Positions 6,335 through 51,170 are shown, counted from the first letter of the stretch. The stretch: 54,708 bases of DNA from a virus (IMGVR_UViG_3300035670_000266:1-54708); one strand, 5' to 3'. The notes: a model not told the origin generated them from the letters alone. Program-made: numbers and translations.

Positions 6335-7732
6335 ATGGCAACTAATAAACAAAGTTTAAAAGCAATTGAAATAAAAGAGATGATCGTCTATGATGTAGAC
6401 GGTGATCCTCATAACTTAACTAAAGTTGTCACTGGATTTTTTTATTATGAAAATATTTTTCAACCATTTGTATCTGGAGTTGCAAACATAGCGGATTCTG
6501 GTAATAACTTTATTGGAACTCTACCAATACAAGGTGGGGAAAGAGTATTCATTAAGATTAAAGATGCTTTCGAGGACACCCATGAGTATGAGATGTACAT
6601 TTGGAAAGTATACAATAGAACTTTCACTAAGAATCTACAGACATATAATTTAGCATTGATATCTAGAGAAGCATTATATAATGAAGGTGTTAGATTAACC
6701 GAGATACTCAAAGGAACACCAGACAATATTACTAAAAAAATTCTAAAGGATTATCTAAACACTGGCAAAGAAATTATTACAGAAACTAGCAAGTATCAAG
6801 TAGTCTTCTATCCTAACGGTAAGAAAGCACATAGTATTATACAATCGTTAGCACAAAAAGCAGTTCCTTCCGTATCATCTTCAGCAAAAGGTGATGCTGG
6901 TAAAACAACACAGGGGGGAAAGACTGGTTTATCTGGCGACACCAAGAAAGCATCTGGTACAGCTGGGTATCTTTTCTTTGAAAACAAAGATGGATTTAAT
7001 TTTAAATCTATAGATTATTACTATAGTACGGGAGATGATAAATTTGGTGGTGACCAAGAAGTAGCGGAATACTCTGCTCGCCCAGCAAATCCAGATAATA
7101 GATTTACTATTGAAGAGTATAAATTCTCAAATGAAATTGACATCTTAGAACAGATGAGAAGTGGTGCTTATGCTAGTCACTTAGTTCTTTATAACTATTC
7201 GACAGGTTTTTATGAAGAGTATAGATTTAATTTAAAAGAAAACTTTGATAGCATGGCTCACTTGGGAAGTCAATCTAAACTAGGATCAATGCAAGAAACA
7301 TTATCGGTAAATCCTAGTAGAGTTATGTCTATCATTTTAGACCATGAAACGTTTCATGATGATAAAGCTCCTGGATCTCCAGATGAACGAGATAATGCTG
7401 ACGGCAAAGGGGCAGACTTTCCAGACTATCAAAAGCATTGGTTAGCACAAAGCATTGCTCGTAGATACTTCATGGAAAATCAGAAGATGGAAATTACTAT
7501 TCCAGGTAACATGAATTTAAAAGTTGGAGATAAAATTAAAGTGATGCTACCCAATATGGCGGCAGAAACTATAAGAAAAGAAGAAAAATATGATAGAGAA
7601 AACAGCGGAACGTATTTGATTTCCGCTCTATCACATAACAATGTCTTCCTAAATAGTAGCACATGTACAACCAAGTTAGAATTGATAAGAGATATTTACG
7701 GAATGAAGGATTATACTAGCAACGTAAAGTGA
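6335..7732 (+). CDS. Baseplate hub protein (gp27-like / Mu gp44-like)
   Basis: LPIQGGERV, GYLFFENKDGFNFKSID, ITIPGNMNLKVGDKI, SGTYLISALSH; directly upstream of gp5. Confidence 0.7.
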   Translation: MATNKQSLKAIEIKEMIVYDVDGDPHNLTKVVTGFFYYENIFQPFVSGVANIADSGNNFIGTLPIQGGERVFIKIKDAFEDTHEYEMYIWKVYNRTFTKNLQTYNLALISREALYNEGVRLTEILKGTPDNITKKILKDYLNTGKEIITETSKYQVVFYPNGKKAHSIIQSLAQKAVPSVSSSAKGDAGKTTQGGKTGLSGDTKKASGTAGYLFFENKDGFNFKSIDYYYSTGDDKFGGDQEVAEYSARPANPDNRFTIEEYKFSNEIDILEQMRSGAYASHLVLYNYSTGFYEEYRFNLKENFDSMAHLGSQSKLGSMQETLSVNPSRVMSIILDHETFHDDKAPGSPDERDNADGKGADFPDYQKHWLAQSIARRYFMENQKMEITIPGNMNLKVGDKIKVMLPNMAAETIRKEEKYDRENSGTYLISALSHNNVFLNSSTCTTKLELIRDIYGMKDYTSNVK

Positions 7733-14034: not shown

Positions 14035-14301
14035 ATGAAATACGCGCTATCTCAAGCATATGTCTTTTATATGGGAGAGGTTGTTCGTATGTATTTCATA
14101 CAAAACATACCATATACTTTTGATGAACTCCCACAAATAATACAAGATCATCCATCTGTTCAAACAGAAGCTCTTCAAAATCGTGATTATGATGACGAAG
14201 ATTTATATATGTCTTGCAATTATTTGATGATAGAAGCATGTCATCCATTAATGTTTGAACTTGAATTAGAAAATCCTGATTTATTACCACAAGATGATTA
14301 A
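14035..14301 (+). CDS. Hypothetical protein coupled to cpeT
   Basis: 88-aa acidic ORF; overlaps cpeT start by 8 nt. Confidence 0.75.
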   Translation: MKYALSQAYVFYMGEVVRMYFIQNIPYTFDELPQIIQDHPSVQTEALQNRDYDDEDLYMSCNYLMIEACHPLMFELELENPDLLPQDD

Positions 14302-14818
14302 AGAATTTTGTAGATTACTTGAAGGAAAATTTGAAAACAAAATTCAAGCATTTTCTCATCCCAGTAAGTATGCTTTTATTCGTGTCACTCATGTGCTATT
14401 AGGTGATGGATTGTTTTACGGTGAGCAAGCATATAATTATCAACTAAATAAACCTTATAGACAGTTTGTTCTTGAACCTATTCTTGAAGGAAATCATATT
14501 CGTATATACAATTACGAAATAGATGATAAGCAAAATTATGTTAATTTTCAAAATCTTGACCAAATCGACCGTAGTGTGCTAAAATTAAAAAGTGGTTGTG
14601 ATGTGGTTGTCGAGCAATTTGATGATTCTTTCAAAGGGAGCTTGACAGGTTGTGATTGTATGGTAGATTGGATGGGGAGACAAACCTATCTTCAAAATGA
14701 GATAGAATTGACTCCCACACACTACTATGTTATGGATCGTGGATTTTGTGCTGAACATCATCATCAAATCTGGGGTTCAAAGTATGGTAGATTTGAGTTT
14801 GCTAGAATGCCCTTGTAG
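14294..14818 (+). CDS. cpeT: T-type phycobiliprotein (bilin) lyase CpeT/CpcT
   Basis: G.FENKIQAFSHP..YAFIRV.H, FYGEQAY..QLNKPYRQ, GCD, DRGF.....QIWGS..G.FEF motifs. Confidence 0.92.
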   Translation: MIKEFCRLLEGKFENKIQAFSHPSKYAFIRVTHVLLGDGLFYGEQAYNYQLNKPYRQFVLEPILEGNHIRIYNYEIDDKQNYVNFQNLDQIDRSVLKLKSGCDVVVEQFDDSFKGSLTGCDCMVDWMGRQTYLQNEIELTPTHYYVMDRGFCAEHHHQIWGSKYGRFEFARMPL

Positions 14819-14880
14819 CTCAGTGGTAGAGCAACGGTTTTGTAAACCGTTGGTCGTCTGTTCGAATCAGATCGGGGGCT
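14809..14880 (+). tRNA. trnT: tRNA-Thr(TGT), overlapping the cpeT stop codon
   Basis: GCCCTTG/CGGGGGC; GCTC-AGTGGTA-GAGC; ACGGT-TTTGTAA-ACCGT; GTCTG-TTCGAAT-CAGAT. Confidence 0.92.
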
Positions 14881-14881
14881 T

Positions 14882-14980
14882 TGATAGGGTTGGAAATATC
14901 CGATCTTATCATACGTTTCGGGATCATCATAACCGAAACAACCAAGTGCCTGGTGTGCCGCTGGCACTAGCGGCACCTTT
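14882..14980 (+). ncRNA. Candidate structured RNA (three hairpins) between tRNAs
   Basis: 13-bp stem 14882-14911; GTTTCGG/CCGAAAC 14915-14939; GTGCCGCT/AGCGGCAC 14955-14976 followed by a T run. Confidence 0.55.
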
Positions 14981-14981
14981 T

Positions 14982-15058
14982 GTCGGGGTAGTGAAGCCTG
15001 GTATCACGGCGGTCTCATAAGCCGCAGAACGTGGGTTCAAATCCCACCCCCGCTCCCA
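14982..15058 (+). tRNA. tRNA-Met(CAT), initiator-like but divergent
   Basis: CGGGG/CCCCG acceptor core, D loop AGCCTGGTA and T loop TTCAAAT as in fMet tRNA; GCGGT-CTCATAA-GCCGC; encoded CCA. Confidence 0.82.
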
Positions 15059-15059
15059 A

Positions 15060-15131
15060 ATCCTGTTAGTCTATTGGTAAGGACGGGTGGACAACACACA
15101 TGGAAACTGGGTTCGATTCCCAGCCAGGATT
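15060..15131 (+). ncRNA. tRNA-like RNA with non-canonical anticodon arm
   Basis: ATCCTG/CAGGAT acceptor, GTCT-ATTGGTAA-GGAC D arm, CTGGG-TTCGATT-CCCAG T arm; no 5-bp stem with 7-nt loop in the anticodon position. Confidence 0.7.
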
Positions 15132-15135
15132 CAAC

Positions 15136-15173
15136 ACCCCTCAAGCCTCTCAACGATGCTCAAACAGAGGGGT
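15136..15173 (+). ncRNA. Small hairpin element between tRNA-like RNA and tRNA-Leu
   Basis: ACCCCTC ... GAGGGGT closing stem with inner AGC/GCT. Confidence 0.35.
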
Positions 15174-15178
15174 CACTA

Positions 15179-15260
15179 GTCGATGTGGCGGAATTGGTAG
15201 ACGCGCTGGGTTTAGGTTCCAGTGAGGTAACTCGTGGAGGTTCAAGTCCTCTCATCGACA
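15179..15260 (+). tRNA. trnL: tRNA-Leu(TAG)
   Basis: GTCGATG/CATCGAC; CTGGG-TTTAGGT-TCCAG; long variable arm GAGGTAACTC; GGAGG-TTCAAGT-CCTCT. Confidence 0.93.
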
Positions 15261-15273
15261 TATATAAATTTCA

Positions 15274-15339
15274 AAATTGACTTTTTGATTACATAAATTG
15301 GGGAAAAAATTCTCCGCCCAAAAATCGTCAAAAAGGTCG
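15274..15339. repeat. Intergenic A/T-tract element, copy 2
   Basis: aaattgactttttgattacataaattggggaaaaaattctccgcccaaaaatcgtcaaaaaggtcg; aligns with 12707-12772. Confidence 0.8.
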
Positions 15340-15341
15340 TG

Positions 15342-15349
15342 TATAAATA
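15342..15349 (+). promoter_or_regulatory. T4 late promoter TATAAATA
   Basis: Exact T4 gp55 consensus 39 nt upstream of the giant structural gene. Confidence 0.8.
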
Positions 15350-15388
15350 CATTGAAGAAGAAAGAAACTATCCTGGGTTTGGCTAATT

Positions 15389-18300
15389 ATGGCTCTTACA
15401 AGACTTGATAATCTGTATTCAAGCAAAACTGGTAAATACCTTTATGTATCTCCAGATGACTTTAATGCTACTGACGAATTAGATAACAGAGGCAATTCTC
15501 CTCTACGTCCTTTCAAGACAATTCAAAGAGCATTTATTGAGGTAGCAAGATATTCGTTCCTACCTGCTGAAAACGGTCAAAGCGTTCCTGATAGATTTGA
15601 CCAGTTCAGCATCATGCTAATGCCTGGTGATCACTATATTGATAACCGTCCAGGTCTTGTAGAAATTGATACTGGTAAAAAACAACGTTATTATGATGCA
15701 AAAACCCTAATTACAGCAAACCGCCAAGAAATTATTGATCGTGCGTTTGCTCAGATTGCTATTGATTACAATGAAGTACTTTGGGGCGCTAATTGGGTAG
15801 TTCCTGGCGATCCTGCTGTTCAGGATAAAAATAGATATTATGATTCATATCGTTTAATTCAAAAAAATAGAGATTATATTAGAGATAGAGCAACTGCTGA
15901 GGTAGCCATTCAATTTCCTGATTTTTATTTTCCAGATGAACCAGAAACTGATACTGCTAGCAGATTTGCTGATGCTTATCGTTTAATTCAGCAAAATAGA
16001 CAAAATATTATTGATTCTGCCTTTGCTAACACCGCTTTAACTTATCCTGCGGTTGGTTCTGTTGGAGACAAGTGTAAGCGTGATATCGGTTACTTTATTG
16101 ATCACACTACACTAGACCTTTTCTTTGGCGGCAACAAGTACACCAGAGAATTTGTACTTCAGTACTTTGATGCTAATGGTAACCAAATTACCAATGGTCT
16201 TCAAGGCGAAGAAACTCAATCTAACTATGCTTTCAATGCTGCTAAAGCTTTCATGAAAGCAGCATTAACAAATCAAAGTTCTGTTGTTGTTAATGGAACA
16301 ACTTATAATATTGCTTCTTGGACAAAAGACTTAACTATAACTGCTGATCCTTTAACTGGTTCTAATACTAGTGCTGCTTCTTGTGCTAACGTACAGACTA
16401 CACTTGATAACTTAACTACCATTGTTACTGATGTTTTCCTTGCTGGTAATCTTTCAAGTCTTCCTCCAGTAAACACAGGAAATGCTTCTGTAGGTAAATT
16501 AAAGTGTGCTAGAGATATTGGATTCTATATTGATGCTATTTCTCTAGATATTGCTCAGGGTGGTGGTAACGTATACACTAGAAAGTATATCAAAAACTAC
16601 TTCAACCCAGCTGGCACTGCTTGGATTGATGATGGTCTACAGGGAGAAGAAGTACAATCTTTAGTTGCTTTTAATTTTGCTAAAAATTTGATGAAGCAAG
16701 CAGTATCCAATCAACTTGGATACAAAGATCTATCTTTAACTCACAACACATCTAATCCTGGCACTTATAATGGGGACAATTATGACCCAGCTTCTTGTGC
16801 TAATGTAAAAACAACAATTGACAACCTTGCTGGTATCGTACAAACTTTCTTCACTCAAGGTACATTAGATAACTTTGTAGCAGAAACTGTAGCAGACACA
16901 GAACCAGGCGAGAGCAAGTGTAAGCGTGACATTGGTTATATTGTTGATGCTGTTGCTGCTGACTTAGCAAATGGTGGTAATGGTAGCATTATTGCTGCTG
17001 CTAAAGCATATTTTAACAAAAATGGCACTCCAATCAGTAATGGTTTAGTTGGTGAAGAAGCACAATCAATTGTTGCTTTTAATGCCGCCAGAGACATGAT
17101 GAAGAAAGCTGTAACCAACCAGCTTTATTCTAAAGATCTCACTATTCTTGCTGGCCCTGCTGAGTACATTGGATATGAAACTAACGAACCAATTGTACCA
17201 AATCTTCCATCAGGTAATGCTGCTACTTGTATTGATGTACAAGCAAGTATCGATACTCTTGTTGGTATTATCACCACAGTTATCAATGATGGAAATCTAG
17301 ATAGTCTCACTAATGTACAAATCACTGGTGATATCCCAGTATTTAACTTTAACAGAGCTCTACAAGAATGGCAAGATAACAGTATTCTTGACCTTAGCAA
17401 CCCAGATAACGTTCTTTACAAGTTTAACTCTTCTACAGGCGGTTGTATCGTTCCTAGAGGTTGTTCTTTGATTGGTTATGACCTTCGTAGAACGATTGTT
17501 CGTCCTCTTTATGTTCCAGATCCTGCCGATGGAACACAAGAAAGAACTTCTATCTTCAACTTAACTGGTGGTTGCTATATTTGGCAGTTTACTATTAAAG
17601 ATGGTGATCTCTCTTCAAATTCACCGCTATTTGATTCAACTGCTAATGTTGGTAAGGTTTACTTCCAGAAGGGCAATAACTCACAGTTAGCTATTCCTGA
17701 GTATTCTCACCATAAGATCACTATTATGACTTATGCTGATCAAGATGATCTTGATCTGTATTATCAAAAGGTAGCAACTGCTTTTGCTTTGTTCCAACCA
17801 ACTATTGATGATGGTGATTTTGAAGCACTGCCACAAGAAAACAGAATTGTTGGTCCTCTTTCTGATACCAGAAGTATTAGTAAAATTAGACTAAAGGGAC
17901 AAACTGCTGGCGGCAAGACAACCATTGAAGCTACCACAAAAGTTGCTCATGGATACTTCAAGGAGCAGTATGTTGCTATTATTGATACTGGATTGAATGA
18001 TGGATTAAACGGTACTTTCAAAATTACCGCTATTTCGGATAATCCTAAGATTTTTGAATATGAAGTTGATCTAACTCCTCAGCAACTAGGATTGGATATT
18101 AACGAGACTGGATATACTATTCCAGATCTTAGCTTAAATGCCAGAGCACAAGCAGAAATCGACTCTGTAGAATCTGCTTCACCATACGTCTTCAACTGCT
18201 CAATCAGATCCACCTGGGGTATCTGTGGTATGTGGGCAGATGGATCCAAAGCAACTGGATTCAAGTCGATGGTTGTTGCTCAGTACACAGGTGTTTCGCT

Positions 18301-21300
18301 ACAAAAAGATGACCGTGCTTTTATCCGTTATGATGAATTTAGCAACACCTGGAACCAGGCATCACTAACTGATGCTTTTGCTACCGTTGCTTATCATACT
18401 AAAGGTGATGCTTATTGGAAAGATGACTGGAGAAACTTCCACATCCGTGCTTCGGATGACTCATTTATTCAGTGTGTTAGCGTCTTTGCTGTAGGATTCT
18501 TTGATCACTTCTTGATGGAGTCTGGCGGTGACATGTCAATCACCAACTCCAACTCTAACTTTGGTAATACATCTCTACACTCTATTGGTTATAAGGGATT
18601 TTCTTTCAACCAAGATAAGGGTGGATATATTACTGATATTATTCCTGTCAAAAAAGTTGATACCAGTGCTTTTAACGAATTAGAACTTAAGTATTATCCT
18701 CTGTCTAATCAGGCTACTAAAGTTAATGGTAATCAAACTAAACTATATTATAGTGGAGATGATGTATATTCTCCATTTGAAAAACCAGCAACTTCAATTG
18801 ATGGTTATAGACTTGGCGCTTTAACTAATGATAAATTGTTCCTAAAACTACCAAAACTTGGTGGCGGGACGGACATTTACGAAGCAACTGTTTCTCCATC
18901 TGGATTTGAACAGTACAAAGTTTCTCTAGAAACTCTAAATCCAGATGGTGTTCAGATTAATAATCTAGCACAAGATGCTTCTAATTTGATTGAAGCAAAT
19001 AAGGAGTTTATTCAAAGTGAAGCATACAAGTATATTATTACGAAGTATCCAGCTCTTCAGACAAATACTAATATCACTATTTCTAAGTGTGAAAGAGATA
19101 TTGGTTATATCGTTGATGCTGTAATTCAAGACTTGAGACTTGGCGGTAATATTAATACTATTCAAGCTGCTGAAGGTTATTACGTTGGTGGTACGCTTGC
19201 TTATATTGATGGAGAACTCAACGAATCGATTGAAGCATATGAGTATGTGAAGAATCTTTGTATTGCTGCTATGAGAAATTTTGACTATCTCATTAGAGAT
19301 TGTCAAACAACTAATGGATCTGCTATTATCAATGTTGGTAATACACAAGGACTTCTCGTTGGAATGAGAGTCACTCAGTATGATTATAACACCACTAATT
19401 TCACCAATGGTAGACTAAATCGTGGTACTGCTGTTCCAACTACAATAAATCCATCAATTCCTACTGGTGCTTACGTTAGAAGAGTTATTGACTCCGAAAA
19501 GATTGAAATTGGAAATAGTGCTCCTGTATTGACGGAAACTAATGGTATTTTATCAGCAACATTTGGAAATGCTATTACAGCAAACTTAACTTCTACTTCT
19601 GGCGTATATCTACACTTTGAATTCTCACAAACAGCATCTATTTCAGATAGCAATGATGTTCTTGTTGGTGGATTCAGCTCAGTTAATCCTGTAAGAGATA
19701 GTTCTGTTCTTCAAGACACAACAGCGTGGTCTCCAACTGGTGCTGATGGATATCCTGAATGTGCTAGCATTGCTGCTACTATCGAAGAATATTTCACTAA
19801 CTTCTTCTTGATTCTAAACAATGGATTAACTCCCCTTGGCGGTAAAGAAGTAGATGCTTCTAACTTAATTCTTGCTAATAAAGAATTTATTGCTGCTGAA
19901 GCTGTAGATAGAATGTTGGCAAACAATCCAGGATTTAGTGTTCCTGGCGGTAGTCAAAATTGTATTGATGACGTTATTGATGTTCTAGAGACATATGCCT
20001 ACAATATCAAGTTTGGTGGAAATGATAAAGTTTATGATGCTGCTAGAATCTATGTTCTACAACCAGGACTACTAGCTGGAGAAAGAACACAATCTGTTGA
20101 AGTTTATACAGAAGCAAGAGATCTTGCTACTTCTGTAATGAGAAATCAACCAATTATCATTGAAGGTTCTCATGGTTTGACTCAAACTTTTGATAATAAT
20201 GTCATTGGTGAAACTTCTAATCAAGCTGGCGTTTATAACTATGCCAATGATTGTGTTAGTGTTGCTCAAACTCTAACTACATTTACTGCTATTATTACTC
20301 AAGCAATTGGTACTGAAGCAAATCCAGGAAATCTAACTGGTATTACTAGAACAGAACCAACATTCAATGTTGTCACTAGAGTAGAACCAGTAGTAGATAC
20401 TGCTAATCTTGCCACTCGTGCTACATTATTCACTGTTAACACTGGTGCTTCTACTTCAGATCCACACTTATTTGAAACTGGAACTCCTGTAAGACTTGTT
20501 CCAAAAATTAGAGATGGTGTAGACCCTGCTACTGTAGATAAGAGAGTAATTCGTCTTCCAAAAGGATTTGATACTAATACAATTTACTATGTAATTGCTC
20601 CTGGTAGAAGAACTGAACCTGAAGATTATTCTGATGGTGCTACATATCCAAATGTTTTCACCAAGAATCAAACAACTAAGTTGATGTTGGCGACAACAAA
20701 AGAAAATGCGGCCGCTGGCATTTACATGTATTCGCCAGAGACTGACTCTGTTGATTTCAACGTACAAATAGAACTTCATCAGTTTGTTCTTGATGAAAGT
20801 TATGATCTTCATCAATATCTCTGTAATTTCCCAACTGGTCAAACTAATGTAATTCAAACTGATGTTCCCCACATTTTTGATGTTCCAGGAACTCAGGCAC
20901 ATGTACAAAAAATCTTCTTTAGAACATTTGGAGAATCATCAACTCTACCTCAGTTTACTGATGGTTCGAGTGTAAATCCAAATCAGTATTACTATGCTAG
21001 ATTTGTAACTCCAAAGACATTTGCTGTTTATCTAACAGCTGCCGACGCTGTTAATGGATCTCTTAGCGTAACATTTGCTAATGGATTTGGACAAAACTTC
21101 TATGTATTTGCTGATAAGAGGGTATCTCCAGTAAGATTTGATGCTACTAGAGATGATAGTGCTTTACCAGAAGATGATCGTGAAACAACAACTGGACAGT
21201 GGTACATTCAGACAACTGATGATTATGATCCAGCTGTAAACATTCAAGCTAGAATGAATCAAATTGGTGCTGATTTGAAAGATGCTAGATCTAAAAATAC

Positions 21301-24300: not shown

Positions 24301-26767
24301 AACAAACTTTAGTTTACTTGACGGTGGTGCTACTACAGTATTCTTTGCTTCTAATGCTACGGAATTAAATATAGGTAATTCTGTAGCGTCTGGCGATGAT
24401 CAAGTAATTAACATTGGTACAAATGGTGATTCTCAGATTGTTAATATTGGTACTTCTGTTCCAACTACAGAATTAAATCTTCATAATGGTGGTGACATTG
24501 CCAAAGTCAAGATTGGTACATCTAGCAATGTAGGAACTACTAAAGTTTCTGTTATTGAAATTGGTGGTGCTTATGGTAAAATTTCAAACTCCTTAACCGA
24601 GGGTTCTGTTGTTAAGTTAAGAACTAGATTTACTGAAGTTGATGGAGATCTTACCATCGGCGCTGCTGTTGTCAGTGGAACTGGAGTTGCTTCTTTAGCA
24701 TCACCAGCAGAAAGATTTGATTTATTAACAGTAACTACATCTAGAATTAATTTTGGTAGTGCTGCTAGCAGAATCTCGATGGGTGCCCAGGGTGGATTTA
24801 CTCAAATTAATAACAGCCTTACTGTTAAATCTGCTACTAAATTAGAAGGTGATGCTACTTTATCTGGTGGATTAAACTCTGGTGAATTTGAAGTAACAAG
24901 AGGATCGTTTGGAACAACTGCTACGTCTCATGCTCAAGGAAGTATTGATCTTCCTAATATCGACTTGTTCACCAAACAAGAAATTGGACAATTTATCGAT
25001 CTTGAAGGTGGATCTTATTGGGGTCACACTGGAGTGGAAACTGGTGGCGTTAGTGATAATCGTTATCTTGCTGGTTTAGATACTAATGGTGAACCTCTGT
25101 ATTACTTACCAATCGCTATTCCGAGTAATACGACAGCATTCCAAGTTGGAATGTATATTTTACTCGATCGTTCACAGGAAGCACAATACTGGAATGGCAC
25201 TCAATTTGTTTCAACTCAAGGTAATGCTCCAATTGGCCAACAATATAGTGAATTAGTACAAGTTGTTGAATTAACAAACATCAACAACGTTTCTGATTTG
25301 CCATTAAGAGTGAAAGTCAGAAGAGCTATGAACCAACGTAATTCTGATGGTTCTCGTATTACTGGAACTCCTGCTGGATTGCCTGGTGATGTGACAAATT
25401 CTGGTTATAAGTTTATGAGAACTGATCACCCAGATAATACAGTTCTAATTCGTTATAACTTAGCAGAAAATGTGAGTTTTATTGATGATGTTGGTGGTAT
25501 TCCATCTGCTACTTCTGGAACATCGGCTGATATTAATACTGGAGATTTTTCTGGATCTGTTTTAGTAGGAGACATCTTAAGATTTACAGATTCTGAACTA
25601 GCTTTTATTACTGGCATCAATACTACATCTCCACAAAGATTTGTCATTACTGATGGCAATGATGCGAATCCAGTTGAACAGTTTGTAGTTGACTCTACAA
25701 ATGGTAATACATCAATTCTTGGTGACGTAACGGTATTTAAGAACTTCACTCTTTCTGGATCCACAACTGCTGGATCACAAAAATTAATTATTACAAATGG
25801 TGCTTCTACTCCAATTACTAAATTTGAAGTGGATTCTGCTACTGGCACTGTTTGCTTGAAAGGAGATCTTAAGGCTGGTGGAGATAATTGTGATCGATTA
25901 ACTGTAATTGGTTCTACTGGTAATACGACTTTATTGGGCGGAAACTTTGTAATTAGAAATTCTGATGCTACTGTTGACAAGCTTATTCTCCAGAATAGCA
26001 CTGGCAATCTAACATTAAGTGGAATAATTACCACTCAGGGTGCTGGAACTAGCACAATTGGTGGTCCGCTTAAAGTCAACGGCGGCACATTTACTGTCAA
26101 TAAGATTGATCAATCACCAGAATGGCAGGCAAATACTAATTATCTGAATGGTAGTACAATATTCTTTGGTGATAATATCTATACAGTTGTTACTGTTGGT
26201 GGTGTTGCTTCTGGACTTTCTGGAACAGTTGCTCCTATACACACTTCTGGAACACAAAATAATGGTGCTATTCAATTAACGTTCCTTAAGACTAAATCTG
26301 AAGAGCAAATCTTCCAGATTGAAACTGATGGTTCCATGAACTTTGCTGGTCAGCAAGGATTCTATACACCAACAGGTGCTAGAAAGTGGCAGTTTGTTGG
26401 CGCTGGTGAATCACAATTTGAAGTTGTGTCTAATATCAACTATTTTGTATCACCATCTTCTGACTTGACACTTCTTTTACCACAAAATCCAACTACTGGC
26501 GATATGATTAGAATTGTTGATGTTGGTGGAAATCTAACTTATAATGTTTCATTGAGACTTAGAGCACCAAACGGCATTAGTGTACAAGCAGATAACACAA
26601 ATGCTAATATTCCTAATTTAGCAAGTATAAATTATAATGGTGGTGAACTAGTTGTTCAAACTCCTAATGCTGGATTGGGTCTAATTTATCTTGGTAATAC
26701 AAATTATGATGGTACATCAACAGGTGCTCCATCATCTACACAAGGTTGGTGGTTAGTAGAAATCTAA
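15389..26767 (+). CDS. Giant (3792 aa) virion structural/fibre protein with five phycobiliprotein-like helical repeats, beta-helix-like regions, a possible carbohydrate-binding module and a gp9/gp10-like C-terminus
   Basis: N-terminus YLYVSPDDFNATD...RPFKTIQRA typical of cyanophage giant structural proteins; KCxRDIG(Y/F) repeats; WQANTNY..G....FGDNIY module; LTLLLPQNPTTGDMIRIVD C-terminus. Confidence 0.8.
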   Translation: MALTRLDNLYSSKTGKYLYVSPDDFNATDELDNRGNSPLRPFKTIQRAFIEVARYSFLPAENGQSVPDRFDQFSIMLMPGDHYIDNRPGLVEIDTGKKQRYYDAKTLITANRQEIIDRAFAQIAIDYNEVLWGANWVVPGDPAVQDKNRYYDSYRLIQKNRDYIRDRATAEVAIQFPDFYFPDEPETDTASRFADAYRLIQQNRQNIIDSAFANTALTYPAVGSVGDKCKRDIGYFIDHTTLDLFFGGNKYTREFVLQYFDANGNQITNGLQGEETQSNYAFNAAKAFMKAALTNQSSVVVNGTTYNIASWTKDLTITADPLTGSNTSAASCANVQTTLDNLTTIVTDVFLAGNLSSLPPVNTGNASVGKLKCARDIGFYIDAISLDIAQGGGNVYTRKYIKNYFNPAGTAWIDDGLQGEEVQSLVAFNFAKNLMKQAVSNQLGYKDLSLTHNTSNPGTYNGDNYDPASCANVKTTIDNLAGIVQTFFTQGTLDNFVAETVADTEPGESKCKRDIGYIVDAVAADLANGGNGSIIAAAKAYFNKNGTPISNGLVGEEAQSIVAFNAARDMMKKAVTNQLYSKDLTILAGPAEYIGYETNEPIVPNLPSGNAATCIDVQASIDTLVGIITTVINDGNLDSLTNVQITGDIPVFNFNRALQEWQDNSILDLSNPDNVLYKFNSSTGGCIVPRGCSLIGYDLRRTIVRPLYVPDPADGTQERTSIFNLTGGCYIWQFTIKDGDLSSNSPLFDSTANVGKVYFQKGNNSQLAIPEYSHHKITIMTYADQDDLDLYYQKVATAFALFQPTIDDGDFEALPQENRIVGPLSDTRSISKIRLKGQTAGGKTTIEATTKVAHGYFKEQYVAIIDTGLNDGLNGTFKITAISDNPKIFEYEVDLTPQQLGLDINETGYTIPDLSLNARAQAEIDSVESASPYVFNCSIRSTWGICGMWADGSKATGFKSMVVAQYTGVSLQKDDRAFIRYDEFSNTWNQASLTDAFATVAYHTKGDAYWKDDWRNFHIRASDDSFIQCVSVFAVGFFDHFLMESGGDMSITNSNSNFGNTSLHSIGYKGFSFNQDKGGYITDIIPVKKVDTSAFNELELKYYPLSNQATKVNGNQTKLYYSGDDVYSPFEKPATSIDGYRLGALTNDKLFLKLPKLGGGTDIYEATVSPSGFEQYKVSLETLNPDGVQINNLAQDASNLIEANKEFIQSEAYKYIITKYPALQTNTNITISKCERDIGYIVDAVIQDLRLGGNINTIQAAEGYYVGGTLAYIDGELNESIEAYEYVKNLCIAAMRNFDYLIRDCQTTNGSAIINVGNTQGLLVGMRVTQYDYNTTNFTNGRLNRGTAVPTTINPSIPTGAYVRRVIDSEKIEIGNSAPVLTETNGILSATFGNAITANLTSTSGVYLHFEFSQTASISDSNDVLVGGFSSVNPVRDSSVLQDTTAWSPTGADGYPECASIAATIEEYFTNFFLILNNGLTPLGGKEVDASNLILANKEFIAAEAVDRMLANNPGFSVPGGSQNCIDDVIDVLETYAYNIKFGGNDKVYDAARIYVLQPGLLAGERTQSVEVYTEARDLATSVMRNQPIIIEGSHGLTQTFDNNVIGETSNQAGVYNYANDCVSVAQTLTTFTAIITQAIGTEANPGNLTGITRTEPTFNVVTRVEPVVDTANLATRATLFTVNTGASTSDPHLFETGTPVRLVPKIRDGVDPATVDKRVIRLPKGFDTNTIYYVIAPGRRTEPEDYSDGATYPNVFTKNQTTKLMLATTKENAAAGIYMYSPETDSVDFNVQIELHQFVLDESYDLHQYLCNFPTGQTNVIQTDVPHIFDVPGTQAHVQKIFFRTFGESSTLPQFTDGSSVNPNQYYYARFVTPKTFAVYLTAADAVNGSLSVTFANGFGQNFYVFADKRVSPVRFDATRDDSALPEDDRETTTGQWYIQTTDDYDPAVNIQARMNQIGADLKDARSKNTTFKRLKDDRTAQDRIYRLRYVIPKYADGVRDPLNGFVLKARTDETRKLLPQKIVLKPVSSGIASVALFEVETQLAQGGTINQQLGLPASELNSSFDYDPYNVDQVKIIPSDRTESKVSFTIQSARKVTISSTEYLELTVFDLGITSDSVRNEQFVTVKINAPQGGSFRINSSVSNELNKVTWNGFSSGFAYIQGYFNPDGTDEHYLVLKGLDEDVISYNRNSSTVFSQPVLNVDNDPVLDSNGNQVLIYATLQAKPNSVGSPNNTLSKSDRKDYLYSDKNANVLTMTPGDKIIDDDGNQYEIASVVDAGEIEDTFYIFDIEEVKRRIPNQQEGIYYLTCVKGNVSPYPTGPGVGTNFRNFRFSQPIGQLYPLDYKNDPLWFQVRPDGTRDTSILDTPATVCAADNFIHGLVTTNDYKNSETKEVILDFIENPALNRYDYVTNAIEAQSGNAASGSEDRLIPICGDSPYPTERRLYVELRRPSIARSGNHTFEYLGFGPGNYSTGFPLRQEVVLRDIQDFYAQAKREDGGIVFYTGLNSNGDLYIGNRKINAITGEETFLERAELLASDDDEGDIGGLVTTFELPVAFEQEITVDGDALFNNPVTINVDDDEPNAFTVISNVDSNAGGDLSLDSSAFSRSIIASQGNVVIHQNQIWSAVYRLNPRGNTLLSGQDYSIRTAVDNTAGNTPTNQTPNQTNSNLGYAVAYGNQQPTAGDIILKGEQVDRSGSLGWIYANFYDPVTASIESSTALGGSTVQFNTVTGTSVSSLGIVVNTIIKIEGMTGRYLNLNGLRKVTEVSGSFFKVNAPVLIEVSAVDDPQAIGSGVVISVARNSWKEVGVVGSEVFRTYTDIPGKYAVGINTIARAAHADKDTAFISTVTYPRATLDVVGTMFISGKTLSDTNFTNNSTLSQRTFNVEDNAVLIGGDSLLPNTTATLRVATSNGTQSNGSPRLYTGGRLGLNVSESNMNHTLTVVGDMRLTEDATFEENLAVNGGSLSTTSTNFSLLDGGATTVFFASNATELNIGNSVASGDDQVINIGTNGDSQIVNIGTSVPTTELNLHNGGDIAKVKIGTSSNVGTTKVSVIEIGGAYGKISNSLTEGSVVKLRTRFTEVDGDLTIGAAVVSGTGVASLASPAERFDLLTVTTSRINFGSAASRISMGAQGGFTQINNSLTVKSATKLEGDATLSGGLNSGEFEVTRGSFGTTATSHAQGSIDLPNIDLFTKQEIGQFIDLEGGSYWGHTGVETGGVSDNRYLAGLDTNGEPLYYLPIAIPSNTTAFQVGMYILLDRSQEAQYWNGTQFVSTQGNAPIGQQYSELVQVVELTNINNVSDLPLRVKVRRAMNQRNSDGSRITGTPAGLPGDVTNSGYKFMRTDHPDNTVLIRYNLAENVSFIDDVGGIPSATSGTSADINTGDFSGSVLVGDILRFTDSELAFITGINTTSPQRFVITDGNDANPVEQFVVDSTNGNTSILGDVTVFKNFTLSGSTTAGSQKLIITNGASTPITKFEVDSATGTVCLKGDLKAGGDNCDRLTVIGSTGNTTLLGGNFVIRNSDATVDKLILQNSTGNLTLSGIITTQGAGTSTIGGPLKVNGGTFTVNKIDQSPEWQANTNYLNGSTIFFGDNIYTVVTVGGVASGLSGTVAPIHTSGTQNNGAIQLTFLKTKSEEQIFQIETDGSMNFAGQQGFYTPTGARKWQFVGAGESQFEVVSNINYFVSPSSDLTLLLPQNPTTGDMIRIVDVGGNLTYNVSLRLRAPNGISVQADNTNANIPNLASINYNGGELVVQTPNAGLGLIYLGNTNYDGTSTGAPSSTQGWWLVEI

Positions 26768-44053: not shown

Positions 44054-44877
44054 AAACAACTAATCATTCCCTGTATCGCTACGCTGGTGGCAAGAACAGG
44101 ATGAAGAAAGATCTGATTGAAATCATCCGTGATGTCAATCCTGGTCTGAAATATATTGTGTCTCCATTCTTTGGTGGTGGAAGTACAGAAATGCTCCTGG
44201 CATCTCAGGGCGTCAAGGTCCAAGGATACGATATTTTCCGACCCCTGGCAGACTTCTGGGAGATTCTCAAGACAGAGGGCGGTTGGCGCCTGGCAGACGA
44301 GGTTGAGAAGCATCATCCATTAGTTGACAGCGATCACTACAAATCCTTCCTTCCGTTGTTAGATAGTGACGATAAGTTCACCCGAGCATGGGCATTTTAC
44401 ATAGCTATCAAGGGTTCGTACTCAGGTAAGATCGGATGTTCGACCGTTCGTAGTAGAGCAGAGTTCAGACTTGTTGGAATTGATAAACTTAGGAATTTTC
44501 ATGCTCCGAACCTGTCGTTTGCCTACGGTAGTTGCTTCGACACGATCCCGAAGCACGAAAATGACTTTTTGTACCTGGATCCACCATATTATGAGACTGT
44601 TAGCCACTATTATGGCAAAGATGGTGCTCTTCATAAGTCATTTGATCACGAAGCTTTCTGTGATGTCTTGAAGCAACACAAAGGTGGGTTCGTGATGTCT
44701 TATGACAACAGCGATTCTGTTCGTGAACTTTACGAAGGATGGACTGAGTTCAGGTATCTCACATTTCCGTATCAAATGTCTGGCACCAAACGCTACGATA
44801 AGACGGAACTTGTGATTGTTAAATATCCTCAGAATGTACGACCAAAACAAAAAGCATTAGAGGCATTTTTAGTATGA
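44050..44877 (+). CDS. Dam-like (D12 class) N6-adenine DNA methyltransferase
   Basis: RYAGGK, PFFGGGS, YLDPPYY, FVMSYDN, ELVI; ATG 44050 overlaps the HNH stop (ATGA). Confidence 0.9.
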   Translation: MKTTNHSLYRYAGGKNRMKKDLIEIIRDVNPGLKYIVSPFFGGGSTEMLLASQGVKVQGYDIFRPLADFWEILKTEGGWRLADEVEKHHPLVDSDHYKSFLPLLDSDDKFTRAWAFYIAIKGSYSGKIGCSTVRSRAEFRLVGIDKLRNFHAPNLSFAYGSCFDTIPKHENDFLYLDPPYYETVSHYYGKDGALHKSFDHEAFCDVLKQHKGGFVMSYDNSDSVRELYEGWTEFRYLTFPYQMSGTKRYDKTELVIVKYPQNVRPKQKALEAFLV

Positions 44878-45518
44878 ATATCACTAGACATACAAAATAC
44901 ATATGGGAAGTGGAAAATCTCATCACAGAAGAGGAATGTGATGAGTTTAATAATTTGTTTGATAATCTAGGATTAGAACCAGTAGAAGGATTCAGAAATC
45001 TCGTTAGGAAAAACGATTCATATTCGTTCGAAGATCAAACAGCACAAGAAGTAGATAATCTAGCTTGGAGTTTTGTGTTGAGAGCACACAAACTTTTCTT
45101 AGAAAAGAATCAATGGATTTTTTTTAATTGGGATAAAGGAGAATTGACAGGTGATACTGCTTGGAAAGGTAAGAATATTATTAGATCTTACAATGCTGAT
45201 GATTTTTACGACTGGCATACAGATCACAACAAAACAAACTTATCTGAGCTGTCGTATATCATCTATTTGAACGATGATTTCCAAGGAGGAGAAACATGTT
45301 TCAAGAATGATAATCTGTCTGTACAACCTAAAAAGTGTAGTGCTCTGTGTTTCCCTGTAGACCATTACCATATACATAGAAGTAATAAGATAATTTCTGG
45401 CAACAAGAGAATTATCTGGAATTGTCTATTCAGATCTGAATTAAAAGTTTCTGAAAGAACAACAGGTTATGGTTCTATAGTAGGAGCTCCCCGTGGAAGC
45501 AAAAAAAGTATTTGGTGA
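44874..45518 (+). CDS. 2OG-Fe(II) oxygenase
   Basis: YDWHTD, IIYLNDDFQGGET.F, H.S.KI.SG.K. Confidence 0.85.
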   Translation: MNITRHTKYIWEVENLITEEECDEFNNLFDNLGLEPVEGFRNLVRKNDSYSFEDQTAQEVDNLAWSFVLRAHKLFLEKNQWIFFNWDKGELTGDTAWKGKNIIRSYNADDFYDWHTDHNKTNLSELSYIIYLNDDFQGGETCFKNDNLSVQPKKCSALCFPVDHYHIHRSNKIISGNKRIIWNCLFRSELKVSERTTGYGSIVGAPRGSKKSIW

Positions 45519-45524
45519 TAGATA

Positions 45525-45755
45525 ATGACATTATACTATTATGGACTGCTAACGATTTTTGGCATTGTGGCTTGTATAATGGTCATTGATCCCAATGTTG
45601 GAACATATATTGATTTACAAGTAAGAAATGTATTTGTACAAATAAAACGATTTTGGTATCTTGCTACTTTATATCCAACAATTAAGTATAACAACTGGCA
45701 ATTGATGAGACAGTTGAAAAAAATTAGAAAAGAGCACAATTTACCCGATGAATAA
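45525..45755 (+). CDS. Hypothetical membrane protein
   Basis: N-terminal hydrophobic helix; overlaps next start. Confidence 0.65.
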   Translation: MTLYYYGLLTIFGIVACIMVIDPNVGTYIDLQVRNVFVQIKRFWYLATLYPTIKYNNWQLMRQLKKIRKEHNLPDE

Positions 45756-46290
45756 TCTATTTGATTACGTTTATGTAGAAAATATTCTATCTAAACAATT
45801 TTGTGAACGATCTATAGAACTACTTGATAATCTTAGATGGGAACCTCATACATGGTATGGTAGCGAGAATGGATCTGAACGAAAGCTATTAGATAGGAAA
45901 GATTTTTCGGTAACCTACGATCTGATGCTTCAGATTGAAATTAAGGATAGATTGTTTGATGCTCTTGAGAACTATTTCAAAAAGCATCCAGAATCATACT
46001 GTAGAGATTGTTCTGTTCTTCGATTCAATAAGTATTCTGTTGGAGAAAAAATAGATCCACATGTAGATCATATCAGTGGAATCTTTAATGACAAAAAAGG
46101 CATTCCAATTCTTAGTGTAGTTGGATTATTAAATGATAATTTTGATGGTGGTGAGTTTATGCTCTGTAATCAAAAAGTTGACTTAAAAGCTGGGGATGTG
46201 CTAATATTCCCATCTATCTTTCTCTATCCACATGAGGTAAAACCAGTGACAAAAGGAACTAGATACTCTTGGGTTTTGTGGGGGTTCTAA
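45748..46290 (+). CDS. 2OG-Fe(II) oxygenase (prolyl-hydroxylase-like)
   Basis: HVD, LNDNFDGGEF, FPSIFLYPHEVKPVTKGTRYS. Confidence 0.9.
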   Translation: MNNLFDYVYVENILSKQFCERSIELLDNLRWEPHTWYGSENGSERKLLDRKDFSVTYDLMLQIEIKDRLFDALENYFKKHPESYCRDCSVLRFNKYSVGEKIDPHVDHISGIFNDKKGIPILSVVGLLNDNFDGGEFMLCNQKVDLKAGDVLIFPSIFLYPHEVKPVTKGTRYSWVLWGF

Positions 46291-50353: not shown

Positions 50354-50562
50354 CCCAACAAGAAAAAGAACACGATTCTGTTTGTAATCAAGTAGAAACT
50401 ATTCTTAAGAATAGGTTTCGTAGGTTCAAGCACCTTATGAAGAACGATCGTGTTGAAGATGCTGTTGCGATTGGCGAAGAGTTTACAGAATGGATGCTAG
50501 AGACAGATGAAATCATATATTTCAGTCTCAATGATTTGAAAGAACTCCTCGAATCTAAATGA
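50350..50562 (+). CDS. Hypothetical protein
   Basis: 70-aa ORF, ATGA overlaps. Confidence 0.7.
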   Translation: MTQQEKEHDSVCNQVETILKNRFRRFKHLMKNDRVEDAVAIGEEFTEWMLETDEIIYFSLNDLKELLESK

Positions 50563-51170
50563 AGAATCCAATCCAGTTAATTGAACCATCACCCTATGTA
50601 GTTTTTGCCACTAAACTGCCAGACTCATTGTGTGATGATATTTGCTCATACTTTTCTGATAAAGAAGTAGATATGGGCAAAACAGTCAATAACAAAGGTT
50701 ACCGTAGGGCGGGCATTCGATGGTCTAGCCCTGGTGATTGGATTGGACCTTTTATGTGGCAGTATTTGTCACAGGTAAATGAAACTCACTTCCAGTATGA
50801 TATTACTGGTACATATTTTGGTGAGACACATCAAATTGAATATCGCCCAGGTTGTCACTATAAATGGCATGAAGATGATAGCATCTCTCATTGTCTAATG
50901 TATGAGCATCCTGGATTTCATAAGTTTAGACCAGAGATAAAAGAATATATGAGAAAGCTGTCATATACTCTACAACTATCTCATCCTGATGATTACACTG
51001 GTGGTCAAGTACAGCTGTGGGATGAATCAAGAAAAATGTCATTCTTTATTCCAAAAGAAAAAGGAACGTTATGTATCTTTGATTCGAGAACTAGGCATCG
51101 TGTTCTACCAGTAAAAGAAGGAAAACGATTTGCTTTAGTTGGATGGGCAGTAGGACCAAGATGGAAGTAA
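50559..51170 (+). CDS. 2OG-Fe(II) oxygenase (PKHD/P4H-like)
   Basis: HYKWHED, RKLSYTLQLSHPDDYTGG, FDSRTRHRVLPV.EG.R.ALVGWAVGPRWK. Confidence 0.9.
   Translation: MKNPIQLIEPSPYVVFATKLPDSLCDDICSYFSDKEVDMGKTVNNKGYRRAGIRWSSPGDWIGPFMWQYLSQVNETHFQYDITGTYFGETHQIEYRPGCHYKWHEDDSISHCLMYEHPGFHKFRPEIKEYMRKLSYTLQLSHPDDYTGGQVQLWDESRKMSFFIPKEKGTLCIFDSRTRHRVLPVKEGKRFALVGWAVGPRWK

Follow-up and report, generated by a model that had tools for sequence, protein, structure and literature searches.

Phycobiliprotein-like units in a giant tail-module protein of a T4-like cyanophage, a candidate substrate for the phage-encoded CpeT

Two long-standing questions about cyanophages meet at one locus. Most T4-like cyanophages carry a bilin lyase gene without phycobiliprotein genes as its substrate, and in 2010 PMC3037559 described what phage cpeT does as "unresolved". 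Adsorption of phages S-PM2, P-HM1 and P-HM2, according to PMC6628666, needs light but not host photosynthesis. The locus lies in the viral sequence IMGVR_UViG_3300035670_000266:1-54708, referred to here as the window (the whole stretch of 54,708 nucleotides that was analysed), where a homologue of the T-type lyase CpeT is encoded upstream of a giant tail/baseplate-module protein of 3792 amino acids (aa). An initial annotation, made by eye from the sequence, had read five repeats of the giant protein as phycobiliprotein-like domains retaining both chromophore cysteines, and had suggested that they are the substrate of the phage CpeT in a pigmented virion appendage. A computational analysis was carried out on this proposal, which as a whole was found to be partly supported. 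The repeats offer a concrete candidate answer to both questions, namely a phage-encoded putative substrate with its attachment residues intact, placed on the tail.

Homology, fold and distribution of the repeated units

The five units are almost certainly homologous to phycobiliproteins (PBPs; Pfam family PF00502, cut-off 22.2 bits). Residues 1-1670 of the giant protein matched PF00502 with 46.8 bits (E 3.9e-12) summed over the repeats. On single pieces four of seven matched at 13.7-21.6 bits, none above the cut-off alone, and in a six-frame scan the first PF00502 site passed the cut-off only jointly with its neighbours (24.6 bits). When residues 95-634 were searched against the PDB using phmmer (E ≤ 1), all 30 matches were to phycocyanin alpha, at Cys84, with unit 2 aligned to phycocyanin alpha residues 48-105. 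Unit 5 searched in the same way (E ≤ 10) returned PBP beta chains in 28 of 30 matches, with a best E of 9e-4 over beta residues 34-73. A profile made from 64 units gave 98 PDB matches at E ≤ 10; the best 60 of the 98 were all PBPs (top E 5.3e-5), and the alignments covered helix B and the Cys84 helix. Chance resemblance to PBPs was ruled out, all significant PDB matches in four independent searches being PBPs. The likeness first noticed by eye was upheld by PF00502, by the 64-unit profile against the PDB and by structure superposition.

Other searches were less productive. Sequence searches against the PDB returned nothing for the middle part of the protein (residues 651-1191, E ≤ 0.1), and chance rows only for the first 104 residues; phmmer returned nothing when the 48 aa of unit 4's closing helix were searched by themselves. 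A near-length protein search of a library of 5.8 billion (E ≤ 10) found just nine short proteins and no PBP; three of the nine bear automatic PF00502 labels in Pfam, so the databases had flagged the likeness silently. No usable match was obtained from the ESM Atlas, and tblastn of unit 2 against plasmids yielded two chance rows.

All five repeats of the initial annotation were recovered by the 64-unit profile, at residues 191-355, 345-493, 483-637, 1194-1306 and 1486-1645. Unit 4 was absent from the training set, yet was matched at E 6.3e-28. The ten cysteines were confirmed at the positions first reported for them (C229 at nucleotide 16073, C332, C373 at 16505, C470, C511 at 16919, C614, C1234 at 19088, C1458, C1525 at 19961 and C1622), as was a GGN following every first Cys by 18-20 residues. 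A closing helix had been claimed for each unit. It is present, with the amendment that in the tandem units 1-3 it also occupies the place of the next unit's leading helix: the helix preceding units 2 and 3 is the closing helix of the preceding unit. The closing helix of unit 4, with C1458, was assigned by eye and from orthologues. Unit 4 also has an insertion of ~140 aa (window 19307-19750, aa 1307-1454) between a G-like helix and the closing helix, in which DUF3568 scored below threshold (20.4 bits, cut-off 23.2); orthologues of unit 4 keep a Cys a few residues past the G-like helix.

The fold was predicted using AlphaFold2. A three-unit model of residues 95-650 had a mean confidence (predicted local distance difference test, pLDDT) of 83.8. 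Two solitary leading-helix pairs ahead of unit 1 form helices 2-31 and 53-81 of this model and are conserved in orthologues; the same solitary leading helices recur in many related proteins. The rows returned by Foldseek for the 556-residue model were mostly unrelated all-helical proteins, with 5aqd_M at rank 47 the sole informative one, and for this reason unit 1 was modelled by itself (pLDDT 96.5; predicted template modelling score, pTM, 0.92). With the single-unit model every top Foldseek row listed was a PBP beta chain, at probability 1.00 and template modelling (TM) scores of 0.55-0.67. Superposition with VIA on 48,161 chains placed PBPs or ApcE in the top eight rows (Z 12.3-16.2), above other globin folds, which reached at most Z 11.2. 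When VIA was applied to Foldseek's own matches, all 50 rows were beta chains (Z 15.7-17.5; root mean square deviation, rmsd, 1.9-2.2 Å), with 128-143 of 167 residues aligned and an identity to PBPs of 10-19%.

In all 50 rows the model began at chain residue 32-35 and ended at the chain's last residue, from which it follows that the unit corresponds to the globin core without the X-Y hairpin, and that its closing helix corresponds to helix H. Each unit is a beta-type globin core with helices A/B, E, F', G and H. A globin-like fold, as the proposal had implied, was thus returned by AlphaFold2, Foldseek and VIA alike. Assembly of the units into the (alpha-beta)3 discs of phycobilisomes is unlikely, because the X-Y hairpin is missing and the setting is a tail protein.

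The units are a widespread cyanophage feature. A tblastn search with the repeat region matched 235 phage records, cyanophages without exception, and among 1.84 billion cluster representatives the 64-unit profile (E ≤ 1e-3) matched 1,456. Proteins that contain such units are annotated as tail, baseplate wedge or virion structural proteins, and a single protein can have as many as 36 of them. A PBP domain of host origin has been multiplied into arrays in giant cyanomyovirus proteins. A single PBP-like unit was also found in the siphovirus S-SKS1 (Llyrvirus, HQ633071.1, 17301-17783; E 5.8e-35), in a 928-aa open frame. The literature searched, with subscription journals and supplements outside it, held no description of PBP-like domains in phage virion proteins. 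Even without pigment, a host antenna protein captured and multiplied into such arrays (1,456 representatives, up to 36 units per protein) would be a notable case of host-gene exaptation into virion structure, and one undescribed in that literature.

The two cysteine sites

The first Cys of each unit, with the neighbouring Arg and Asp, aligns explicitly with Cys84 of PBPs, KC.RDIGY falling on KCARDIGYY. The motif C-x-R-D is present in four of the five window units and is replaced by C-I-D-D in unit 5. Conservation was counted across the family in the best 150 of the 1,456 proteins, all metagenomic (1,550 domain hits, ~1,470 units per column). The most conserved columns were an Asp (1454/1467, 99.1%), a Tyr (1452/1468), the Cys (1433/1469, 97.5%), a second Asp (1427/1468) and the Arg (1372/1468, 93.5%). 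These top five columns consist of the C-x-R-D motif and two others, one Asp and one Tyr.

The second Cys stands 19 residues ahead of model residue 162, which superposes on the C-terminal residue of beta chains 172, 177 and 184 aa long. Counting back 19 residues from those chain ends puts it at beta Cys153, Cys158 or Cys165, at the start of helix H. This mapping is inferred, since VIA reports only the ends of each aligned range. A weak, non-significant collinear sub-alignment also matches "DC" in unit 5 to the "GDC" at Cys158. CpcT acts on Cys-153 of the phycocyanin (PC) beta subunit, and CpeT on Cys-165 of the C-phycoerythrin (C-PE) beta subunit, as stated in PMC10254012. Both residues lie 19 residues from the chain end, with chain lengths taken from the VIA targets, and the second Cys would by its position be the beta-type site of T-type lyases. 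The claim that both cysteines occupy beta-subunit bilin sites therefore stood for Cys84, by explicit alignment; the second site is suggested by position and by the sub-alignment.

The second Cys is present in all five window units and in 77 of 81 near-full units of this phage's clade, where both Cys were found in 74 units, with five single and two double losses. Among 313 units of the wider family aligning over both sites, 204 had both Cys, 102 the first only, three the second only and four neither.

These counts bear on a rival explanation in which each unit is stabilised by a disulfide between its two Cys after release into oxic water and neither Cys carries a chromophore. Extracellular proteins often use disulfides, and the joint retention of both Cys in 74 of 81 clade units and 204 of 313 wider-family units would agree with such a role. 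The two Cys are lost independently, which speaks against an obligate disulfide: the first occurs without the second in 102 of 313 units and the reverse in three, and in the clade single losses stand against double ones as five to two. In addition, the two Cys would by superposition fall at Cys84 and Cys153/158/165 of beta subunits, and in solved PBPs each of these residues bears a bilin of its own, the two lying on either side of helix B. Pairing of the cysteines, which the initial annotation had singled out as damaging to its proposal, is considered very unlikely.

CpeT, light-dependent adsorption and the case for bilin binding

The window CpeT matched PF06206 with E 9.7e-39 and 133.5 bits (cut-off 21) over profile positions 2-181 of 181 and, judged by this match, is a true, full-length member of the family. 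A complex prediction of unit 1 with CpeT scored 0.00 in both of two runs made without controls, and counts neither way on binding.

Co-occurrence of the repeats and cpeT was assessed in 29 phage records, each searched whole with the unit profile and PF06206. Eleven were chosen with repeats already known, eight with cpeT status known from Table 3 of Sullivan et al., P-SSP7 as a podovirus control, and nine blind on both traits. Both traits were found in 22 records (P-HM1, P-HM2, S-PM2, Syn1, P-SSM4, Syn9, P-RSM4, P-SSM7, Syn33, S-SSM5, P-RSM1, P-RSM3, S-CAM8, Syn30, Syn2, S-CAM22, S-CAM7, S-RIM2, S-CREM1 and three IMG/VR records), of which P-SSM7 was scored so only through a summed 28.6 bits (best single E 0.0053). 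In the profile searches six records had neither (P-SSM2, S-SM2, S-SSM7, S-CRM01, S-CAM9 and the podovirus P-SSP7), and one, the siphovirus S-SKS1 with one unit and no CpeT, was discordant. All nine blind-picked records were concordant, and the 27 T4-like cyanomyoviruses agreed on the two traits without exception.

Phylogenetic contrasts were drawn on a portal-protein tree, in which P-SSM7 was coded as lacking cpeT; the portal protein was used as the marker because the phrog_350 tail protein was too divergent (matched in 15 of 27 records). S-SM2, S-SSM7, S-CAM9 and P-SSM2, four of the five trait-less myoviruses, fell in one clade with S-CAM7, the sole member of that clade carrying both traits. 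The association expected at the outset was borne out in 28 of 29 records; given just two to three independent contrasts, it is suggestive and not proof. Throughout the S-PM2-type clade the giant gene has cpeT 1-3 kb upstream of it, and elsewhere the distance is tens of kb.

Several further cpeT genes were encountered. Syn1 (GU071105.1) has a full CpeT open reading frame (ORF) at 19938-20462 (PF06206 E 1.5e-35; cpeT in GenBank), closely followed by the gene for its 4026-aa repeat protein; no CpeT-like gene is given for this phage in Table 3 of Sullivan et al. 2010 (PMC3037559). Two CpeT-like genes each were found in the IMG/VR cyanomyovirus records G001 (locus L006; 2240-2668 and 108907-109329, with 21 repeat matches) and G003 (locus L015; 14624-15124 and 53278-53697, with 14 repeat matches). 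In locus L020 the giant gene is preceded by a cpeT homologue (6929-7408) that is broken across two reading frames; a frameshift, a pseudogene and faulty assembly are the possible readings. A CpeT scan of the GTDB genome collection returned one locus only, L026 (3188-3697), with no PBP gene there; it is a 4.4-kb contig of a metagenome-assembled genome labelled Lewinella, and probably a cyanophage contig binned by mistake.

A further line of evidence comes from adsorption. According to PMC6628666, darkness prevents adsorption of P-HM1 and P-HM2 and not that of P-SSM2 and P-SSP7, the light-dependent adsorption of S-PM2 is independent of photosynthesis, and light-sensitive receptors or tail fibres are proposed by the authors. 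Set against those phenotypes, the light-dependent S-PM2, P-HM1 and P-HM2 have repeats and CpeT, and the dark-adsorbing P-SSM2 and P-SSP7 have neither, a link that covers five phages and few independent lineages.

The best explanation of these data, to which a probability of about 0.4 is given, is that the units are still bilin-binding modules, loaded with the help of CpeT and carried on a virion tail appendage. A host- or phage-made bilin (phycoerythrobilin, PEB, or phycocyanobilin, PCB) would be seated in a pocket lined by Cys-x-Arg-Asp and joined by a thioether to that Cys. In this phage's clade a second bilin would be attached where T-type lyases act, on the Cys that begins helix H. Late in infection the phage's co-inherited CpeT would act as a lyase or as a bilin-delivering chaperone, and the mature virion would bear covalent chromophores on its tail appendage. 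Most speculatively, light absorbed by the appendage would alter it such that adsorption takes place only in light. The parts of this account differ in standing. Continued bilin binding by the units is put a little short of even odds; that CpeT serves the units is doubtful; and a virion photoreceptor that gates adsorption by light, loaded with bilin by phage CpeT during assembly, is unlikely.

A number of observations weigh against bilin-binding units loaded by CpeT. The Foldseek E-values of the unit 1 model fall short of 1e-3 (best 4.5e-3), the X-Y hairpin is absent from the units, and a loop (model residues 69-85) replaces the PBP F helix region. Unit 5 has lost the Arg, some unit 5 orthologues have lost the first Cys, and the second Cys is present in just 207 of the 313 wider-family units. 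T-type lyases are known for the second-Cys site and not for Cys84, so that a lyase for the best-conserved site lacks explanation. S-SKS1 carries its one unit with no CpeT found even at E ≤ 5. The portal tree gave two independent contrasts on well-supported branches (three on all), all concordant, with a sign test p of 0.5. In the window four tRNA genes stand between cpeT and the giant gene, which has a late-promoter motif of its own. Finally P-SSM2 and S-SSM7, two of the four pebS phages in Table 3 of Sullivan et al. (PMC3037559), have neither repeats nor cpeT.

Much of this would suit structural exaptation without pigment, the main rival and a tentative but plausible one, in which giant tail proteins employ the captured PBP fold for spacing, stiffening or adhesion. 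The C-x-R-D, Asp and Tyr residues would then stabilise the fold or bind a ligand other than bilin, CpeT would act on host phycobiliproteins or buffer free bilin, and its link to the repeats would reflect shared ancestry and neighbourhood. Fold homology fits such a use equally well, and the two to three contrasts, the S-SKS1 unit without CpeT and the missing X-Y hairpin and F helix region are all in keeping with it. Arrays of up to 36 units in one protein resemble a building block, the Asp and Tyr columns are conserved like the Cys, as in a structural network, and the literature searched held no report of pigmented cyanophage particles. However, pigment-free use gives no reason why three chromophore-binding residues of PBPs should be the best kept (94-99%) at 10-19% overall identity. 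In 102 of 313 units the first Cys has no second Cys to accompany it, and a near-invariant unpaired Cys would be out of the ordinary for a particle in oxic sea water; the agreement of 27 of 27 T4-like cyanomyoviruses, S-CAM7 included, is left without explanation.

Bilin might also be bound for another purpose, such as photoprotection or quenching at the tail, capture of bilin from dismantled phycobilisomes, or a folding checkpoint in assembly. The evidence for binding is shared with the best explanation, and the phenotype link amounts to five phages only. Binding of this kind leaves unaccounted for the way in which light-dependent adsorption tracks the trait in those phages, and it is held to be quite improbable. 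Were the account of CpeT-loaded, light-sensing units true, it would describe the first light-sensing virion, and would account both for phage cpeT and for light-dependent adsorption that is independent of photosynthesis.

Gene surroundings and comparison with known systems

The window, which makes up the whole record, represents 54.7 kb of a T4-like cyanomyovirus (CheckV completeness 28%) with S-PM2, Sf-FR1 and S-CAM3 as relatives. Its tail and baseplate content includes a T4 baseplate protein, a gp5-like hub, and collar and fibre genes, and it also encodes denV, a helicase, a Dam methylase and three 2OG-Fe(II) oxygenases (44874-45515, 45748-46287 and 50559-51167). In S-PM2 one 2OG-Fe(II) oxygenase gene sits between cpeT and the giant gene. 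The features of the locus are listed in Table 1.

Table 1. Features of the cpeT and giant-gene locus in window coordinates
Feature	Position	Strand	Basis
cpeT, T-type phycobilin lyase homologue, 174 aa	14294..14818	+	PF06206; phrog_488 'CpeT-like antenna protein'
Four tRNA genes (Thr-TGT, Met-CAT, Leu-CAA, Leu-TAG), between cpeT and giant gene	14809..15260	+	ARAGORN
TATAAATA, T4-type late-promoter consensus, 40 bp upstream of giant gene ATG	15342..15349	+	Exact match
Giant tail/baseplate-module protein, 3792 aa	15389..26767	+	ORF; phrog_4527 over whole length; neighbouring baseplate, hub, collar and fibre genes
Two solitary leading-helix pairs (aa 96-125, 147-175), rest of unit absent	15674..15913	+	PF00502 14.3 bits, profile 25-64
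PBP-like unit 1, aa 190-356; C229 in KCKRD, C332	15956..16456	+	AlphaFold2, VIA; PF00502 21.6 bits
PBP-like unit 2, aa 329-494; C373 in KCARD, C470	16373..16870	+	Profile E 1.9e-45; helices in three-unit model
PBP-like unit 3, aa 467-638; C511 in KCKRD, C614	16787..17302	+	Profile E 1.6e-53; three-unit model
PBP-like unit 4, aa 1194-1482; C1234 in KCERD, C1458	18968..19834	+	Profile E 6.3e-28 (aa 1194-1306); PF00502 13.7 bits
PBP-like unit 5, aa 1484-1646; C1525 in NCIDD (Arg lost), C1622	19838..20326	+	phmmer; PF00502 15.1 bits (six-frame scan)

The feature was originally ended at 20340, which takes in the N-terminal 1650 aa of the giant gene only and had to be corrected to the true ORF end at 26767. 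The description of cpeT as next to the giant gene holds in that the two are neighbours on the same strand, and needs qualifying by the 570-bp gap with its four tRNA genes. The sequence TATAAATA has a single exact match in the whole window, against 4.9 expected by chance, and so is not above chance; from established T4 knowledge we take it to be a late promoter.

The orthologue of the giant protein in S-PM2 is YP_195253.1 (165928-177267), with cpeT 1.45 kb upstream. The giant ORF and this orthologue carry the name "short tail fiber protein" in PHROGs and RefSeq; no fibre domain was found by Pfam in residues 1671-3792 of the giant protein, and in S-PM2 a separate gp12-labelled gene comes after the orthologue. 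Within the coordinates of the S-PM2 giant coding sequence (NC_006820.1, 165928-177267; locus L114) RefSeq places 16 tRNA features, all with locus_tag S-PM2t009; the same tag on tRNA features and giant coding sequence looks like an annotation artefact.

Among known systems, other globin sensors (globin-coupled sensors, the RsbR N-terminal domain and photocobilin proteins) share the general fold (Z 8-11) and are signal-receiving modules. Compared with PBPs they score clearly lower, do not have C-x-R-D and gave no sequence match in any search. The bilin domain of ApcE is closer, being likewise a PBP fold inside a very large multi-domain protein, and was the second-best structural match (4xxi_A, Z 14.5, rmsd 1.9 Å over 115 residues; full-length 7eyd_19, 7sc7_BD and 9wg7_N2, Z 12.3-12.8). 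Unlike the phage protein, ApcE has one PBP domain followed by linker repeats, and resides in the phycobilisome. No lyase takes part in attaching its bilin, which is bound to a Cys other than the one at position 84, whereas the Cys84 position is retained in the phage units. The P-HM1 lyase PhiCpeT (Gasper et al. 2017) and the window CpeT are members of one Pfam family, and P-HM1 combines CpeT with five PBP-like units, as does the window. The window CpeT is of the longer S-PM2 type, in contrast to those of P-HM1 and P-HM2, in which tblastn matched just its residues 1-61.

The closest likeness is to PBP beta subunits (CpcB, CpeB and cryptophyte beta), which adopt the same globin fold between residue 32-34 and their C-terminal end (Z 15.7-17.5, rmsd ~2 Å). 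Both have Cys-x-Arg-Asp with Gly-Gly 18-19 residues on and, as far as position indicates, a Cys that opens helix H at 19 residues from its end. In unit 5 the alignment of the leading helix runs over beta residues 34-73 and takes in "NPG..PGG". In contrast to beta subunits, the phage units have no X-Y hairpin and hence would not form the usual alpha-beta monomer, their loop between helix B and helix E is ~9 residues shorter, and a loop lies at the F helix region. They are also embedded, five here and up to 36 elsewhere, in virus proteins of thousands of residues.

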